Of a DNA stretch of 64,000 nucleotides, positions 17,424 through 26,828 are shown piece by piece. Under the pieces are notes generated by a model. That model was not told the origin of the DNA. It saw only the letters and a program-made list of their open reading frames with translations, and did no database searches. The first letter of the stretch is position 1; every line of letters starts with the position of its first letter. The stretch is taken from the NCBI GenBank assembly GCA_000004985.1, contig GG738855.1; one strand, 5' to 3'. The translations under genes were made by a program, and so were the position numbers. This DNA is from Naegleria gruberi. Its lineage: Eukaryota.

Positions 17424-20132
17424 ATGATGGAAGACCAATCACCAACTAATCCTCTTCCTTCTACCATCATGTCTACGGATACAAATACATCAAAAGACAA
17501 GGTTGTATTCATCTATGTTCTCGATAAGGAGAATGAGGAACAACAAGAGGTGCAATATAGACACCTCTCATGTTATGCTCACTATCACGTTCTTAGTACT
17601 TTATTAATCATGGGTTGTAAACAAGGAGATGCTGCTGAAATTAGTGATTTAGTTTTCAAATGGGTCTCAGAAGCACAATACAACCTAAAACTACAACAAC
17701 AAAAACAACAACAATTAGAGAGAGCAAGACATTCATCATCCGAGGAGGAAAATCTCCTCGAAACTGTTGATAATTATTCTGTAAATGAACTAAACGTTGA
17801 AGGAACATACAGCCAACAACAATCTAAACTTCTCAAACCCTTGTTAAATTATAGAGAAAACAACAACATACTACCAACTAGTATTCAACAAGTAATAGTT
17901 GAAGATCACTTGGATTATTCAAGTTGTTCATCAAATGGTGAAAGTGGTAGTGAATCGGAAAGAGAGGATGATAAAGAAGTTATTACGAATGAGGACTTTT
18001 CTATTGATTCTCCGCCAACACTCTCCAACTATCAAGGAGGAATTACATCATCACCTCACAATTGTAATAAGAATAGTGAAGAAGAATCAATAAATCACCT
18101 CCATCAAGACTCTCACAAGAAGGACAGAAAGAAAAAACACAGAAAGTACAAATCCTCTAAATCTCCCTATGATAGTGGTAATGATATTGATGAATCCGAT
18201 CATGAACACCATTCAGACGATAATGTTTCGCTAACCCCTAATCATGAAAAACAATCCACCACAGTGCCATTCTCTAAATCCATATCTGTACCAATCTCTA
18301 ATCACAACAAGAAAGCACTCTTAACTAATCATTCACTAGAAATTCCAATCACTATAGAACAACAAGCATCTGGAAGTTTTGATTCACAAACTTTAGGTAC
18401 ATCACCAAATAATGTAAATAATCCTTTAAGTAAGAAGAGAATTTTGAGATATGACAAGCATTTGAAGAGCAAGTCTTATCTTGTTAGAGAAATTACCTAC
18501 ATGCTCAAACAGAATAGGTCTCTCAAAATTCCACAAACCATCAGTAAGAGACATGAGAGAAATTATGTAATTTTCCTTACCAGATTCCAATTCCAAGAGA
18601 TTATAAGAATTGCTTTGAACGTTTTTGGTTACAGTAGAGCAAATAGAATTAGAGACTTTTCTATTGCTTGCTCAATGCAAGAAAGAAGAAGACCACTAAT
18701 TATTTTATTTGGAGGAACTTCTGGTACTGGTAAAAGTACATTGGCAAGTCTTATTGCAAGTCGTTTAGGTATTACAAAAGTCCTCTCTACTGATAATATT
18801 AGGCACATGCTTAGAGCATTTATTTCTAAAGAAGAGGAACCAGTTTTATTTGCCTCTACCTATCATGCAGGAGAAGCTCTTGTCAATACACAAGAAGGAA
18901 AGGAACTGAAAGATAAAATGTCACCAGATGAATTAACTGTTGAAGGATTTAGAAGACAATGCAAATTGGTCATTGAACAATTAGAAAAAATCATTGAACA
19001 AGCAATTGAACGTAATGAGGGACTTGTAGTGGAAGGTGTTCACTTATTGACTGATTTTATTGTGGAACTTATGAAAAAGCATCCAACTAGTATCCTACCA
19101 TATATTATTTATATTAGTAATCAACAAAAACATAAGGAAAGATTTGCTATCAGAGCAAAATACATGACTCTCGAACCTAGGAACAACAAATATGTCAAAT
19201 ATTTCCAAAACATTAGACAAATTCAAAAGTATTTATATGATAGAGCTGAGGTTTATAATGTACCAAAAATTGATAACACAAATATCGATCGTTCTATTGC
19301 AGCAATTCATGGCAGTGTATTCAAGTCTATGAAGATGGTCTTTGAAAATAAGAAATTATTTAATTATGAAACTGGCAAATGTTCCTCAGTACATCCTAAA
19401 TCTCTTTTCGATAAGAAACATCAACATTGGTCTTCCAAGAGAATGCTTCAAGCTCTTCAAAAGAAACGAGTCTCTCTAGAAATTAAGGGATTAGCTGAAG
19501 CCTCAACAGTCCCAATAGTAGAAACTGAATTAATAATCCAAACTGATTCTTCCTCAACCAATACTCCAATAATCTCCAATTCATCCATTACCATTCCTCC
19601 TCTTGTACACACCAAATCATCATCAATAGAATCATCCAATACTGAAGAAATTACAGAAACTGTACTTGGAAAGGAAACTAGCAGTAGTAGTGAGGGCGAG
19701 GCAGACGATAAGACAACTCTCTCCAATAGATCGTCAAGAAGGAAAAAGACTCTTACTCTCACTAAGAAAAATGTTGTCTTTGCACCAAATGAACCCTCAC
19801 ACGATAATCAAAAACCTGAATTGGAGGAAAGTTTGGAAATAACTAGAGAAATGCAAGAAAATGTAGAGACTCTGGAAGACCCTGAATCAATATCGCCCAC
19901 AATTGTGAAACCAATTTCTGCTCTTAAAAAGAAGAAGAAGAAATTGGTTGAAGAATTAATCAATCGTCCAGACAGTCCAGAGGAACCACCTCAAACTCCA
20001 CAAAATGGGGAAACTGACACAAACGATACTCCTAAATACAATTACTATACAACAAGTGAAGGTGTTTGCAGTTTGTCAGAAAGAGATCAAGATTTTGAAT
20101 ATGGCCAATGGATTGAAATGGATACATCCTAA
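17424..20132 (+). CDS. P-loop NTPase of the 2-phosphoglycerate kinase-like (2-PGK / LPA1-like) family, with long low-complexity N- and C-terminal extensions.
   Basis: Single 902-aa ORF starting at ATG 17424. Central block RRRPLIILFGGTSGTGKSTLASLIASRLGITKVLSTDNIRHMLRAF.. carries a Walker A (GTSGTGKST) and downstream core typical of 2-PGK-like ATP-binding proteins. Flanks are rich in S/E/K/Q runs. Confidence 0.55.
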   Translation: MMEDQSPTNPLPSTIMSTDTNTSKDKVVFIYVLDKENEEQQEVQYRHLSCYAHYHVLSTLLIMGCKQGDAAEISDLVFKWVSEAQYNLKLQQQKQQQLERARHSSSEEENLLETVDNYSVNELNVEGTYSQQQSKLLKPLLNYRENNNILPTSIQQVIVEDHLDYSSCSSNGESGSESEREDDKEVITNEDFSIDSPPTLSNYQGGITSSPHNCNKNSEEESINHLHQDSHKKDRKKKHRKYKSSKSPYDSGNDIDESDHEHHSDDNVSLTPNHEKQSTTVPFSKSISVPISNHNKKALLTNHSLEIPITIEQQASGSFDSQTLGTSPNNVNNPLSKKRILRYDKHLKSKSYLVREITYMLKQNRSLKIPQTISKRHERNYVIFLTRFQFQEIIRIALNVFGYSRANRIRDFSIACSMQERRRPLIILFGGTSGTGKSTLASLIASRLGITKVLSTDNIRHMLRAFISKEEEPVLFASTYHAGEALVNTQEGKELKDKMSPDELTVEGFRRQCKLVIEQLEKIIEQAIERNEGLVVEGVHLLTDFIVELMKKHPTSILPYIIYISNQQKHKERFAIRAKYMTLEPRNNKYVKYFQNIRQIQKYLYDRAEVYNVPKIDNTNIDRSIAAIHGSVFKSMKMVFENKKLFNYETGKCSSVHPKSLFDKKHQHWSSKRMLQALQKKRVSLEIKGLAEASTVPIVETELIIQTDSSSTNTPIISNSSITIPPLVHTKSSSIESSNTEEITETVLGKETSSSSEGEADDKTTLSNRSSRRKKTLTLTKKNVVFAPNEPSHDNQKPELEESLEITREMQENVETLEDPESISPTIVKPISALKKKKKKLVEELINRPDSPEEPPQTPQNGETDTNDTPKYNYYTTSEGVCSLSERDQDFEYGQWIEMDTS

Positions 20133-20313
20133 ATAAAACTGTAATGACAAATACTTTAGTCGATTAGTGTTGTTTGTTTCAAGACCACATTATGAGAATC
20201 CAATTAAACAATCAACACCATTGTAACCTGTTCGGAAAATTGGTCAAGCTCTTGGACATCCGAGAGCAAGCTTCAATTATGCATCAAACAAATCAACAAG
20301 TCGTTTTATATGC

Positions 20314-22107
20314 ATGAAAATAATCAACATAAAAAAAATGTCCTCCACCATTACCACTCTCAATCAGAGTGTACAATCAAGAATAGATTCTTTAAATGAT
20401 CAGTTGAAGGATATTAAACCTCTCACTCTAATTTTTTATACAACAGCCACCATTGCTTCAACATATTACGGAAAACAATTATGGGAAGCCTCCAAGGAAC
20501 ATCCAAATGGATTGAGTGGAGTTCTTCTCGGAACAATTTTAAAAACTGTTAGAAAATTACCAATGGTTGATTCCAAAATTCAAGAAACACTTGCAAAAAT
20601 TTCAAAGGAGATCAAATTGTCTTTTAAAAAAGGAATTGAACAAGAAGAATACAATGAAAAATTACCATTAGAAGGAATTCCATATCCACAATTATTGAGC
20701 TTACTTAAAAAAATGAAACAACTCGATGGTAAAAAGGTATCTCAAAAGAAATTATCTGGTGTTGTATATATTGATGCTACAGATGATTCAAATGATGAAG
20801 AGGACTCTTTAAGTGTAAATGATCAAGTTGTGTCACAAAGTAGTACTGATCCTCTTGCATTTAGAAAATATCATGAAGACCTCCTTGCCAAAACCTATCG
20901 TTATTTCATGCATACCAATCCATTGCATTCAGATTGTTTCCTCTACACCAGAAAAATGGAGGCAGAAGTTATTAGAATGACTGGAGCCATTATGAATGGA
21001 TCCTACAATAAGGAGACAGGAGAGGGTATTGTTGGTACCACCACAAGTGGAGGTACAGAGTCTATTATTATGGCATTGAAGGCCTATCGTGATCAAGCTA
21101 GACATGAAAAGCCATGGATCAAGCAACCAGAAGTTGTTGCTCCAAGAACTGTCCACTGTGCTTTCGAAAAGGGATGTCACTATTTGGGCATCAAGTTGAG
21201 ACATGTCGAAGTGGATTTGAATACTTTCAAAGTTAGAATGGATTTGGTTAAAAAGGCTATCAATTCCAATACTATTTTATTAGTGGGATCTGCTCCATGC
21301 TACGGCCAAGGTATTATAGATCCAATTGAAGAATTGAGTGAATTGGCTCTCAAGAATGGACTAGGTTTGCATGTTGATTGTTGTCTTGGAGGTTTTGTTG
21401 TTCCATTTGCCAAGAAGCTTGGTTTTGATTTGGGTCTTAAAGATTTTGATTTTACCTTGCCAGGTGTAACTAGTATGAGTGTTGACACTCACAAATATGG
21501 ACTAGCTCCAAAAGGTAGCAGTGTTCTATTGTTCAGATCCAGAGAATTGAGAAAGTACATGTACTTTGTTACTACAAATTGGATGGGTGGTGTTTATGCT
21601 ACTCCTATCTTCTCTGGTAGTCGAAGTGGTGCACTTGTTGCTACTGCTTGGGCCAGTTTGATGCATGTGGGAGAAAAGGGCTATTTGGAGGCTACTAGAA
21701 GAATTGTAACAACTGTTCAAAAGATTAAGAAGGGAGTTCAACAAGAAATACCAGAAATTAGGGTATGTGGTGATCCAAAAGCTATGGTGATTGCCTTTGA
21801 AACCAATACTCAAGTGAGTAAAATTGATATTTACCAGGTTATGGACTTCCTCTCCCATAGAGGTTGGAGTTTGAATCCACTTCAATTCCCTGCCTCTATT
21901 CACTTGTGTGTAACCCTGAATACTGCCACAGATGAGAAGGCCAATGAATTCATCCAAGACATGAAGGATGCTGTCAAGGAGGTCAGTACTCATCCAGAGA
22001 ATGTAAAGGGTTCAGCACCAATGTATGGATTGGCAATTTCCATCCCAGATCGTTCCATTATTGATAGTATGATCACCAATGTAGTTGATGCCATGTTGGA
22101 TCTCTAA
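20314..22107 (+). CDS. Sphingosine-1-phosphate lyase (PLP-dependent group II decarboxylase family)
   Basis: Single 597-aa ORF. N-terminal TM segment (LTLIFYTTATIASTYYG). GGTESIIMALKAYRD block. PLP-lysine motif SMSVDTHKYGLAPKGSSVLLFR. The overall length and order are typical of SPL. Confidence 0.8.
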   Translation: MKIINIKKMSSTITTLNQSVQSRIDSLNDQLKDIKPLTLIFYTTATIASTYYGKQLWEASKEHPNGLSGVLLGTILKTVRKLPMVDSKIQETLAKISKEIKLSFKKGIEQEEYNEKLPLEGIPYPQLLSLLKKMKQLDGKKVSQKKLSGVVYIDATDDSNDEEDSLSVNDQVVSQSSTDPLAFRKYHEDLLAKTYRYFMHTNPLHSDCFLYTRKMEAEVIRMTGAIMNGSYNKETGEGIVGTTTSGGTESIIMALKAYRDQARHEKPWIKQPEVVAPRTVHCAFEKGCHYLGIKLRHVEVDLNTFKVRMDLVKKAINSNTILLVGSAPCYGQGIIDPIEELSELALKNGLGLHVDCCLGGFVVPFAKKLGFDLGLKDFDFTLPGVTSMSVDTHKYGLAPKGSSVLLFRSRELRKYMYFVTTNWMGGVYATPIFSGSRSGALVATAWASLMHVGEKGYLEATRRIVTTVQKIKKGVQQEIPEIRVCGDPKAMVIAFETNTQVSKIDIYQVMDFLSHRGWSLNPLQFPASIHLCVTLNTATDEKANEFIQDMKDAVKEVSTHPENVKGSAPMYGLAISIPDRSIIDSMITNVVDAMLDL

Positions 22108-22237
22108 TTTTGAGACAAGCAATGTGTGAAATTTTCCTGTTGGCCCATTCAAATTTTCCTTACATCAGAGTGTATATCCGGCTCGACACTGGAAAAAAAA
22201 TAAAACTGTTTTTGTTTTTATTGGAAAACTTTGTTAA

Positions 22238-23834
22238 TTATTTGGATGGGTGTTCGCAAAGGGTATCATTATGTAAAGCACACATCCAGTAACCACATTG
22301 GGTACATTTTGTGTGCACTCTTGAGTTGTTACAGTAGTGGCAATTGTGGTAATGATGATCATTGACTTTTACATGTGTATGGGGCTGAGTCAATTTTCTC
22401 CCTACATTATCAACTTGAGCACCACCTTTTCTTGCTAATTCAATAGCAAGCATCGAGAGGTACGAAACTAATGTTGTGTTGGGGTCGACAGCTTCCTTGT
22501 AAAAGATCCAACAATTTGTGACTGCTACTCGAAAAATTCCGAACCAAGCTGCATTTGTCCACCTATGCATCCGATGTGATCCATTGTAAAGATGGGCATA
22601 CCGATCAGACACATCCACATTAACATGGTTCTGCTCATACACTGCCTTCACACTAGGGTGTTCATTTCCTCTAGTTTTGGTTTGTTCAATAGATACTTCA
22701 TTTGTTACAAAGTTTACAACTTTTTTATCAGAAAATCTAATAACAACAAAATCACCATTAGTGACCGAAACCCAATCACCTTTTTCCAATGTATACTCAT
22801 TGAGTATCTGGTTACATGGTTTTCCAAGTCGATTACTCATGCAGTTCATTGTGAAACGAAATCCCATTAAATTCAAAACTGCAGCCGTCTTGTAGTGCCC
22901 GAAGTAAGAATCAACACAAATACTATAATTTCTGGATGGTAGGGCTTGTACAAAATCCCAGACAAGTATATGGACAGGTGGTTGATGACCACAGTATGGC
23001 CAAAGACGATACACGAACCATTTACTATCTGACATTAAATAAAGCTTCACACCAGTGTTAGTGGGTTTTCCTTTAATGTGTTGTTTAAAGCGATACCTAC
23101 CATCAAATTCTATCAATGTTTCATCGACAGCAATTCTTCGGAAGGATCCAAATCACCTTGGAAATTATATTAAATATTCTTGTAAAATGATGAGGGTTTG
23201 CTCTGAAGTGTCTATTGATGTAAAGAAAGTCATCTCGGTTGTTCCAAATATTCTTGATGAATTGGTTACTGGTCAGAAGTGATGTAGAGAAGTATAAATC
23301 CAACTCAGGAAGAGGAGCGAGCATTATTGTGATAATAGTTGCAAAATAGAGGTAAATGTCAGACAAGGTGATTATCTTGCTGAGTGGTAAAGAAGTCACA
23401 TCCTCGTGTTCATCAACACTTTCTTCAGGTAGAGAAGGTATGATAACTTGATCGTCTTCATCAAGTTGTTCATTGTCTTCCGAATTATTTTGAACATGTT
23501 TTCCATACCACTCTTTAATGTGATCACCTTGGTCATCAAAATCCGTTGTTGATGGCTTGTGTGGATGGTTACATAGATCAACTATTCCATCCATTAACTC
23601 ATCAGTCAAGTACTGCTCCAAACATTTAAGAGGAGTCATTGAATTCAAGTGATTGCCATGACCAACAGGGCCTTCCGATACCTGTTTGAATGTCATCTCC
23701 TTTTCAAAAAATTCATAATCACTCCATCCCAAACTGTGTAAAAATTCACTGTGTTGGTTGATGTCCTCTAGAGTAATATTATGAGGTTTGTTCATTACTA
23801 GTTGGTGTGATGATGAAGAAAATATACCATCCAA
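22238..23834 (-). mobile_element. piggyBac-family transposase coding region interrupted by a frameshift (probable decayed or domesticated copy, pseudogene-like). No terminal inverted repeats recognised.
   Basis: Two adjacent minus-strand ORFs in different frames, 23121..23834 and 22238..23116. Upstream part contains NIWNNRDDFLYINRHF and KVIWILPKNC, compare piggyBac SRDRFDFLIRCL and KIWDLFIHQC. Downstream part contains RIAVDETLIEFDGRYRFKQHIKGKPTNTGVKLY, compare [30 protein letters not shown]. C-terminal Cys-rich CRD HNCHYCNNSRVHTKCTQCGYWMC. The frames overlap open only within ~23124..23152, implying a 1-nt indel there. Confidence 0.7.
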
Positions 23835-24177
23835 AGTTGATGCTGACTTTGTAAAAAACGGTATTTTTTTTTACAAAAGTGAACCAACTATACCACCATC
23901 CATATAAGGACACGATCATCAAAATGAAAAAAACAAACTTCAACATCTTTATGAAAATGCAAACACATTGCCCCATTCCGATGATTGCACCCAATAATCA
24001 AGTTTAAACAGCACGTGGCGAGCCTGATATATCAATTATTATTATTTATTAAGTGGACTATCAATTATAAACCGACCATTTTACAGTAATCATTATCAAT
24101 GGCTGTATATGTTGTTGGAACAGGAGCACTGGTAATCTTGCTCCCTTTCACACCACAGTGAACCTCATCATAAAAAA

Positions 24178-25410
24178 ATGTCTGTAAGCCGTGTCGTTCT
24201 TGCCCTCTTCCTTATTGCCATCTTGATGGTGTGTGTTGAGACTAAGGTTATAGTTCGTGATATTTTGAAGGAGAAGAAAGCTCAACTCGAACAAGTTAAG
24301 GATGCCATTCAATATAACAAGATTCTTTTGGAAAGTGTTGAATCATTCCGTACTGGAAGTGATAACATTGATTCCTATGTTCTTCAAAATACGCTCAATG
24401 CTAAGAGTTTGGCAGAGGCTGAACAAGCTTTATCTTTGGAAATTAGAGTTTTGCAAGCCCGATGTGATAAGTTTGCTGGTGATATGTGTGAAGCTACAAC
24501 AACAACAAACACTGTCAAGCCACCAGTTATTACAACACTTTCTGTTGATCCAAAACCAGTTAAGCCATCTACAAATAGTACCGTTAAACTACCAGTTAAA
24601 CCAGTTGTTGGTTTACCAAAGCCAGCTGTTAATTCAGTTGTTACTTGCTTCGGTGTAAAATCTACTGATCCAAAGGTCTGCAATGGTAACGGTGTTTGTT
24701 CAAAGAAGGATACATGCACTTGTAATAGATCTCATAGTGGAAAGGACTGTAAGGAATCATTCCTTCCAGCAGTTAAGCCAGTTTCCCCAACCAATACTAC
24801 CAAACCAAGTACTCCAGCCAAACCACCAGTTAAACCACTTTCTGTTGATCCAAAACCAGTTAAGCCATCTACAAATAGTACCATTAAACCACCAGTTAAG
24901 CCAGTTGTTAACAATACAACCAAACCAATTGAGCCAACCAAGCCAACTAAGCCAGTTACTCCAGTTAAGCCAGTTGCCCCAACCAATACTACCAAACCAG
25001 CTACTGGAATGGTCACTCATTCTGTAGCACCAACCTTGCCAATCAGTTCAAGCAACTCTACTGCTACTCCAAAGACAGTTAGGCCAACCAAACCAGCTAC
25101 TAAATCAGCCAAGAAAACCAAGTCAGTTAAGCAAAGAAAGGTTTCAACAAAATCAGCACTTAAGCCAAGAAAACCAGCCGCCAAGGCAACAAAGGCAGCT
25201 AAACCAGTTAAACTAGCTACCAAGCCAGCCACCAGATCAGGACTAAACAAAAAAGCAAAACCTACAACCAAATCAGTTAAGCCAAGAAAGGTTTCAACAA
25301 AATCAACTGTTAAGGCGGCTAAACCAGCTAAACCAACCAAACCTGCTACTACAGCCACACCAGCCCAACCAACCACACCAACTCAACCAAGCACACCAAA
25401 TAAGAAATAA
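24178..25410 (+). CDS. Secreted mucin-like protein: signal peptide, one EGF-like module, then Pro/Thr/Lys-rich tandem repeats.
   Basis: ATG 24178 with hydrophobic leader (VVLALFLIAILMVCVETK). EGF-like CFGVKSTDPKVCNGNGVCSKKDTCTCNRSHSGKDC. Repeated KPVKPSTNST.KPPVKPVV units. DNA-level ~300-bp duplication at ~24538-24610 and ~24838-24910. KPxK/TKPA-rich basic tail. Confidence 0.6.
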   Translation: MSVSRVVLALFLIAILMVCVETKVIVRDILKEKKAQLEQVKDAIQYNKILLESVESFRTGSDNIDSYVLQNTLNAKSLAEAEQALSLEIRVLQARCDKFAGDMCEATTTTNTVKPPVITTLSVDPKPVKPSTNSTVKLPVKPVVGLPKPAVNSVVTCFGVKSTDPKVCNGNGVCSKKDTCTCNRSHSGKDCKESFLPAVKPVSPTNTTKPSTPAKPPVKPLSVDPKPVKPSTNSTIKPPVKPVVNNTTKPIEPTKPTKPVTPVKPVAPTNTTKPATGMVTHSVAPTLPISSSNSTATPKTVRPTKPATKSAKKTKSVKQRKVSTKSALKPRKPAAKATKAAKPVKLATKPATRSGLNKKAKPTTKSVKPRKVSTKSTVKAAKPAKPTKPATTATPAQPTTPTQPSTPNKK

Positions 25411-25414
25411 ATAT

Positions 25415-26828
25415 TTATTTCTTCTTTTTTTGTTCATGACTTGCTTTCAATCTAGCAAAAACAAACTCAACAATTAATAAAATATTACCCACTAAAAAGA
25501 TTAAGGTAATGAAATAGAAAAAGTTTGCATTACCAGTTCCCTTAAAATTCCAAGTGTTGAAACATATTGGACCAAGGAATAATGTAGCCAATAAAGTACT
25601 GACAATAAAGAAACCATATCTCATATTACCACTGACATCCACAAATAATAATAAAAGAGTCATGTAAAAGTAAAAGTCTCCCAGGCATGGATAATTCTTA
25701 AATACTGAAATAATTGCTATTTGTACTACACACCAAAAAAGTCCATCGTTTTTGAATCTAATTGTCAAAGGAATAATGTATGCAAATACATGAAGATGGA
25801 AAATGAGAAGGAAGAAAGTTCTAAAATCATTAAAAACCTCAATAAAAAAATACCACATAGTTCCCCAATTTGGTGTTAGATCTTCCAGTGACATTGGATA
25901 ATAGTAACATTGATACATGAAACTTTGCATTATTTGAATAGACTTGTCATTGAATATTTGAGTCATGATTGAATTATTAACATTCGTCTCATCATGATTT
26001 AATATGAAAATAGAAGCCAGTACGAGAATTGCCATCCACGCTATGAAAAGCACAGTTGCTTTGAATGCAATTGCTGTTGTTGAAGGCGCTTGATTATTTC
26101 TTAATTGAATGCTTCTCAAAATTAAAACAACTCCAATCAACAGGCACACAGGATAAAGTGTCAAATAAGTCCCAAAGGCCAAGAATAGAGTACTCATGGT
26201 GAGATTTGACTTGCTTGCAAAATATAACGCTCCCACAATTGAAATATTGTTAAAAATAACTGTAGACATACTGATACAACTTCCAATCATTACAGGATTG
26301 AATAAGTACGCTAAAAACAAAAGGGTAGGGAGATTATTAGAATCTTGCTTGTTTTCAATTTTTTGATTTTCAATGTATGCAAAGATTAATCGTGATTCGA
26401 ATGCATTTTTAGCAAGTCCAAAAATTAAATATGCAACCACTAAATCCAATACAATATAAATACATCTGTCAATCCACAAATCAACTTGTTCCATTTCAAA
26501 CATTTCACTCAACTCATTTGATATTCCGAAAGGTATTAACAGTAGAGGAGGTTGTAAATATGATGAACTTGAATATGGGGATTGTCCAATACGCGTCAAG
26601 AATAATCCTTCCTTTACTATTTAATTATTAATAATTAAAAATAATTAAATATTCACACCTACATCTTTTAAAACTTGTTGTTGGTGTCGAAAAATGTATA
26701 TCATTCTCTAATGATTTATCAAATCCGTAATAAAATAGCAAAACTCTTATTAGGATTGCCAATACTGACGCGATCACAAGTGGTGCAAGTTGGTGCGATG
26801 AAGATTTTGGTGAGTTGAGAGGCTGCAT
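25415..26828 (-). CDS. GPI transamidase component PIG-U (CDC91-like). Two exons, approximately 26828..26659 and 26616..25415.
   Basis: Exon 1 (ATG at 26826-26828) reads ..LLFYYGFDKSLENDIHFSTPTTSFKRC. The 42-nt intron GTGTGA..AAATAG runs ~26658..26617. Exon 2 reads ..SKEGLFLTRIGQSPYSSSSYLQPPLLLIPFG.. and downstream LTPNWGTMWYFFIEVFNDF...FYFITLIFLVGNILLIVEFVFARL. Both are collinear with conserved PIG-U segments (..[22 protein letters not shown].. and LTPNIGLFWYFFAEMFEHF...[25 protein letters not shown]). Confidence 0.8.

Follow-up and report, generated by a model that had tools for sequence, protein, structure and literature searches.

A stretch of 64,000 nucleotides from Naegleria gruberi (GenBank assembly GCA_000004985.1, contig GG738855.1; hereafter the window) carries a piggyBac-type transposase sequence that is split over two reading frames and lies beside a gene for sphingosine/sphinganine-1-phosphate (S1P) lyase. 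The question raised by this locus was what kind of sequence it is. The initial annotation regarded it as a decaying insertion or, alternatively, as a domesticated transposase gene. Two open reading frames (ORFs) of the window were identical to the N. gruberi NEG-M proteins XP_002680116 and XP_002679992. The reading that is best supported, to which we assign a probability of about 85%, is that positions 22178-24026 are a copy of a piggyBac-superfamily cut-and-paste transposon of N. gruberi NEG-M, recently inserted at an ATAT site between the lyase gene and a gene encoding a protein of 410 amino acids.

Boundaries of the insertion and the empty site

The S1P-lyase gene was located at 20314-22107, adjoining the transposase sequence as had been reported. 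A search with the lyase identified a contig of 4565 bp (L004; ENA ERZ929261, run ERR1078381, k127_432244), from a run labelled 'metagenome', that encodes the same lyase with 100% identity. In this contig, only 217 bp separate the lyase gene from the 410-amino-acid gene downstream. Two segments of the window, 19135-22177 and 24027-25550, aligned with L004 at 99.4-99.7% identity, with 23 differences in 4563 bp altogether; the positions between them, 22178-24026, are exactly those that L004 lacks. A single ATAT was present at this point in L004, compared with two in the window, and bases 3042-3045 of L004 (the ATAT) aligned with both flanks of the missing segment, 22174-22177 and 24027-24030. The alignment therefore delimits the element exactly, to 22178-24026 (1849 bp, transposase on the minus strand), and indicates that ATAT was duplicated at insertion, one copy of this 4-bp target-site duplication (TSD) being found at 22174-22177, on the 3' side of the transposase gene, and the other at 24027-24030. 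It also reveals a presence/absence polymorphism between two sequences 0.5% apart. The empty allele may never have been occupied, or it may be the product of a precise excision; both are compatible with the transposon explanation. The insertion enlarges the 217-bp intergenic spacer to 2.07 kb and places the transposon 147 bp upstream of the ATG of the next gene (24178-25410).

Some further features of these sequences were recorded. The 410-amino-acid product of 24178-25410 has a signal-peptide-like N-terminus, one EGF-like module and tracts rich in K, P, T and S that are repeated internally; the segment at 24516-24609, for example, resembles that at 24819-24909. The differences between L004 and the window across 19135-25550 cluster at 20205-20214 and 20304-20314. 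The S1P-lyase ORF thereby loses its first ATG, and its product has 589 amino acids in L004 compared with 597 in the window. DNA resembling that of N. gruberi, with 99.5% identity to NEG-M, is thus present in the run ERR1078381, which is labelled as a metagenome. Elsewhere in the window, a predicted protein of 320 amino acids (57581-58543) shares a 90% cluster with the 319-amino-acid N. gruberi protein XP_002668156, which is encoded on a separate 2.4-kb scaffold and is possibly an allelic or duplicated assembly fragment.

The left end of the element reads ATAT-CCGGCTCGACAC at 22174-22189 and the right end GTGGCGAGCCTG-ATAT at 24015-24030 (plus strand). The ends form imperfect terminal inverted repeats (TIRs) of 12 bp, with CCGGCTCGACAC on the plus strand at 22178-22189, the gene-downstream end, and CAGGCTCGCCAC on the minus strand at 24015-24026. 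These agree at 10 of 12 positions and have CC/CA…GG termini. They correspond to the short TIRs of the superfamily, which have 12-19 bp with C first and G last, and their positions are set by the empty site. A run of eight A residues (window plus strand) follows the TIR inward at 22178-22189, just inside the 3' end of the element, and a similar 8-nt homopolymer is found at the same place in the N. lovaniensis elements described below. The 16-nt pattern ATATCMGGCTCGMCAC was present solely at the two ends of the element, with no match in 100 shuffles. Within the 64-kb window, no further copy or MITE bearing these ends was detected.

The initial annotation had reported neither recognisable TIRs nor a TTAA-flanked boundary. 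The first statement was mistaken, as the TIRs lie within both of the intervals that had been inspected, each abutting an ATAT; the lead to them was given by the ends of the block shared by N. lovaniensis copies. The second was accurate, the TTAA-flanked boundary being missing because the duplicated target is ATAT, and it was the expectation of a TTAA-flanked boundary that led to the TIRs being overlooked.

The transposase gene and its frameshift

The transposase is encoded on the minus strand by ORFs at 23834-23121 (237 codons) and 23116-22238 (292 codons), whose frames are offset by one base. Only over 23124-23152 (29 nt) are the two open together, and these coordinates agree with those given earlier. 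In shuffled versions of the element, stop-free runs averaged 75 codons and reached a maximum of 145; the two ORFs are far longer and therefore represent real coding remnants. The N-terminal part of the coding sequence extends from the ATG at 23795-23793 (MNKPHNITLEDINQ…) to …VIWILPKN (23795-23133), and the C-terminal part from AVDETL… to the TAA stop codon at 22240-22238 (23131-22238). The start codon aligns with the N. lovaniensis start MTDKQPSDVTIDLINQ, and the N-terminal part is 45% identical to its N. lovaniensis counterpart. The 5' untranslated or subterminal region occupies 24014-23796, giving a distance of 231 bp from the end of the element to the ATG with the TIR counted. No N. gruberi protein of this family was found in a collection of 5.8 billion proteins, which implies that the transposase gene is unannotated.

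All of the conserved piggyBac peptide blocks quoted in the initial annotation were present in the translation. The C-terminal half alone matched the Pfam domain DDE_Tnp_1_7 (PF13843) with an E-value of 1.4e-19, and a conceptually repaired protein, with the halves joined at …ILPKN|(I)AVDETL…, matched profile positions 33-349 of 349 at 6.7e-25. The best solved structures were those of the Trichoplusia ni (T. ni) piggyBac transposase (6x67; 1.1e-9) and piggyBat (9c0f). The catalytic residues D268, D346 and D447 of the T. ni enzyme align with Asp codons at 23125-23123, 22912-22910 and 22615-22613, all in the C-terminal part. The cysteine-rich C-terminus (approximately 22342-22256) also proved to be present, as claimed, and is complete, with the pattern C-x2-C-x8-C-x2-C-x4-C-x2-H-x4-C at residues 486-514. 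It is assigned as a PHD-like domain by this pattern, the alignment to the T. ni cysteine-rich domain being weak, and its six cysteines are invariant across three members of the clade.

Although a shift of frame is possible anywhere within 23124-23152, comparison with homologues places it at 23132, where one surplus T (minus strand) follows AAT (Asn, 23135-23133) and precedes GCT (Ala, 23131-23129). Over a stretch that takes up 15 codons in the homologues, the window has 14 codons and a single nucleotide, and no gap occurs elsewhere in the alignment. The three homologues are all continuous ORFs through this site. The frameshift is the sole lesion seen in the gene and precedes the first catalytic Asp by three codons. 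The description of the locus as a decaying insertion was consequently right in part: the TIRs, the TSD and the empty site in L004 confirm an insertion, but 'decaying' was an overstatement for a copy with one lesion in which the DDD triad, the cysteine-rich domain and the TIRs are all present.

The extra T is likely to be a real mutation rather than an assembly error. If it were an error of sequencing or assembly, the same transposon would be an intact autonomous element with a transposase of approximately 519-520 amino acids. That the start codon, the DDD triad, the cysteine-rich domain and both TIRs are otherwise intact is consistent with such an error, as are the youth of an insertion that is polymorphic between sequences 0.5% apart and the intact copies known in the sister species N. 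lovaniensis. However, the NEG-M reference is a Sanger assembly, a type in which indel errors are infrequent, the frameshift site GAAGAATTGCTG contains no homopolymer run, lesions are usual in most transposon copies and no intact N. gruberi protein of the transposase family is on record. An error at this position was thus judged unlikely.

That the two frames are joined deliberately, through either a short intron or programmed +1 ribosomal frameshifting, is highly improbable. The 29-nt overlap of the frames could in principle allow a full-length protein to be made, but the three homologues are uninterrupted at this site, a ribosome that shifted at the stop codon of the 0 frame would miss the catalytic Asp codon at 23125-23123, and no slippery or Ty/antizyme-like motif is visible in the sequence; frameshifting of this kind is not a family trait, as three of five N. 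lovaniensis copies have uninterrupted ORFs of 525 amino acids. The alignment with the homologues is gap-free across the junction and leaves no room for an intron, which disposes of a GT..AG intron restoring the frame, the result that would have overturned the initial description of a frameshifted gene.

The homology of its transposase and the structure of its ends place the element in the piggyBac superfamily, as a member whose target is a variant one. Like T. ni piggyBac (IFP2; 6x67/6x68) and piggyBat (9c0f), it has a DDE_Tnp_1_7 core, a DDD triad and a C-terminal cysteine-rich domain, together with short TIRs that start with C and end with G and a 4-bp TSD. The T. ni element is nevertheless distant (E-value 1e-9, with the match confined to residues 221-438), and its target is TTAA, whereas that of the window element is ATAT. 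The staggered 4-bp integration at ATAT, the CC…GG ends and the piggyBac-type DDD transposase were observed directly, and from these features movement of the piggyBac type would be expected, with a transposase dimer binding the CC…GG ends. By analogy with the T. ni structures (PMC7351741), excision would proceed via hairpins that include the four flanking nucleotides, with cuts staggered by 4 nt, and integration would occur into a melted tetranucleotide gripped by the omega loop and the residues around Y439/N440. This Naegleria lineage would differ in preferring ATAT over TTAA. A frameshift before the first catalytic Asp would leave the copy without an active transposase, and hence non-autonomous. 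As both of its ends are intact, transposase supplied by another copy could still mobilise it.

Related elements and the question of domestication

Close relatives of the transposase were restricted, among 5.8 billion protein clusters, to two proteins of N. lovaniensis (50-51% amino acid identity over 97% of the query) and one JGI metagenome protein (37%). A search of the 5.8-billion-protein collection with a profile of the clade alignment retrieved nothing beyond the same three proteins. In an exhaustive HMMER search (5642 matches at E≤1e-3), the score fell from approximately 900 to 263 bits outside this clade.

Five N. lovaniensis copies were examined at five unrelated loci, and all read ATAT|CCTCTACGCGACGG…CCGTCGCGTAGAGG|ATAT, with no similarity beyond. 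The first two loci compared had 1.88 kb in common, at 97.8% identity, and nothing outside it. The elements are 1865 bp long, with the ATG 238 bp from the left end, and the copies are approximately 98-100% identical among themselves, two being identical over the first 1500 nt of the coding sequence. Intact 525-amino-acid ORFs were present in three of the five. 'PiggyBac' repeats of N. lovaniensis appear without detail in Table 3 of the genome paper (PMC6125883). The N. lovaniensis elements (XP_044552974 / P0133 and XP_044552983 / P0001) share with the window element a length of approximately 1.85 kb, a 5' leader of approximately 235 bp, a single intron-less ORF of 519-525 amino acids, a run of eight T or A residues inside the 3' end, CC…GG termini and ATAT flanks. 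They differ from it in the sequence of the TIR past the first two bases (CCTCTACGCGACGG compared with CCGGCTCGACAC) and in occupying other loci. They occur, moreover, in several copies, most of them intact, in contrast to the window copy, which carries a frameshift and is the sole one in the 64 kb.

Several gene models in the N. lovaniensis assembly (GCA_003324165.2) fuse the transposase ORF with flanking host exons (L001 10001-11836, L012 3001-6213 and L009 3001-7775), giving predicted proteins of 575, 969 and 1338 amino acids, one of which is joined to phenylalanine-tRNA ligase (PheRS). These models look like annotation artefacts that arose from insertions. Owing to such fusions, transposases and PheRS proteins fall together in one 90% cluster, a member of which is named 'phenylalanine--tRNA ligase'. 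Two sequences without the element upstream of PheRS (L010 and L011, 83-89% identical) are possibly from another Naegleria species, and their intergenic DNA is too diverged to provide an empty site with base precision. One N. lovaniensis piggyBac copy (L008 1-474) has a reverse-transcriptase/RNase H gene approximately 2.3 kb away, an arrangement suggestive of a small repeat-rich patch.

The metagenomic protein belongs to a complete relative (L003; JGI metagenome 3300038658, Ga0399987_039355) with an intact ORF of 493 amino acids, from a very AT-rich host. This element reads TTAT|CCTTTAGGGGACA…TGTCCCCTAAAGG|TTAT, with perfect 13-bp TIRs (CCTTTAGGGGACA) and a direct duplication of TTAT at 97-100 and 1937-1940, a sequence that is non-palindromic and other than TTAA. 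For the metagenomic relatives L006 and L007, which are shortened or frameshifted, no convincing TIRs were found, and they carry no information on target sites.

Domestication, in which the sequence would be a piggyBac-derived host gene of the PGBD or PiggyMac type adjoining the S1P-lyase gene, had been proposed as the alternative to decay. Amino acids are conserved more strongly than synonymous sites in both halves relative to N. lovaniensis (dN/dS of 0.34 and 0.21, with dS saturated at 1.5-1.8). Active transposases share this pattern, and with dS saturated the dN/dS values do not separate domestication from mobility. The remaining evidence is against a host gene: the TIRs and the TSD are both present, the ORF is interrupted by the frameshift at 23132, and the element is missing from the 99.5%-identical contig L004. 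No transposase was found at the N. lovaniensis S1P-lyase locus (L005), and the N. lovaniensis transposase copies have neighbours unrelated to those in the window. The relatives, moreover, are multi-copy, approximately 98-100% identical to one another and at unrelated loci. The ciliate PiggyMac/Tpb2 and vertebrate PGBD1-5 proteins belong to the same transposase superfamily but are encoded by conserved, TIR-less host genes at single loci, unlike the window element, which is mobile, with TIRs, a TSD and insertion polymorphism. A domesticated gene can accordingly be set aside as having almost no probability. The mobility of the window element is apparent from its polymorphism relative to L004 and from the multiple copies in N. 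lovaniensis; it is an ordinary, young, insertion-polymorphic transposon copy, probably just inactivated by the frameshift.

Target choice in the Naegleria lineage

All six insertions from the two species, namely the window element, for which an empty site provides proof, and five copies of N. lovaniensis, were at ATAT, and TTAT was the target in L003; TTAA was found at none of these elements. In the literature searched, the target of the superfamily is treated as TTAA, with rare single-copy exceptions ascribed to mutation (PMC5381638). ATAT has been described as a minority, non-canonical site for CsuPLE1, at 2 of 21 sites (PMC4273485), and rare non-canonical ATAT insertions of T. ni piggyBac occurred in Macrostomum (PMC8717057). 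The acceptance of ATAT, in which the central TA is kept, is common to piggyBac chemistry in the TTAA-specific elements and in Naegleria, but in the former ATAT is a minority site or one ascribed to mutation, whereas in Naegleria it is the sole target seen (6/6). Domesticated enzymes of ciliates also cut TA-centred 4-nt sites other than TTAA. The consistent ATAT target is a mildly novel variant in a superfamily that is defined by TTAA.

Residues of the transposase that contact the target were compared in an alignment that included residues 264-490 of the T. ni enzyme together with the 148 nearest relatives from the HMMER search. In the T. ni enzyme, N440 makes a base-specific contact with the third target base (PMC7351741). 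At the equivalent position, both Naegleria elements have Glu and the protein of L003 (P0003) has Gln. Among the 148 relatives, this position was occupied by Asn in 88, Arg in 22 and Gln in one, with Glu in none. This might indicate, as a hypothesis from the aligned residues, that Glu or Gln at the N440 position is linked to ATAT or TTAT targeting. The position of Y283, in the omega loop, was also considered; it is His in the clade but also in 49 of the 148 relatives, and was dropped as a specificity determinant because it is not diagnostic.

A tentative proposal, to which we give slightly less than even odds, is that specificity in a recently active Naegleria piggyBac lineage has changed from TTAA to ATAT (or to WTAT if the TTAT of the protist element is included), with the central TA kept, and that this change accompanied the replacement by Glu or Gln of N440, the single T. 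ni residue in base-specific contact with the target tetranucleotide.

The practical outcome for N. gruberi is the correct annotation of a previously unannotated 1.85-kb insertion that is polymorphic between near-identical sequences of the species. For the superfamily, TTAA specificity is taken as a defining feature of piggyBac and is relevant to its use in gene delivery. A natural lineage in which all insertions are at ATAT, and which includes intact copies, would make it possible to test directly how the choice of target is encoded. If the proposed change of specificity is true, the intact 525-amino-acid transposase of N. lovaniensis would be a natural starting point for dissecting and re-engineering piggyBac target choice.
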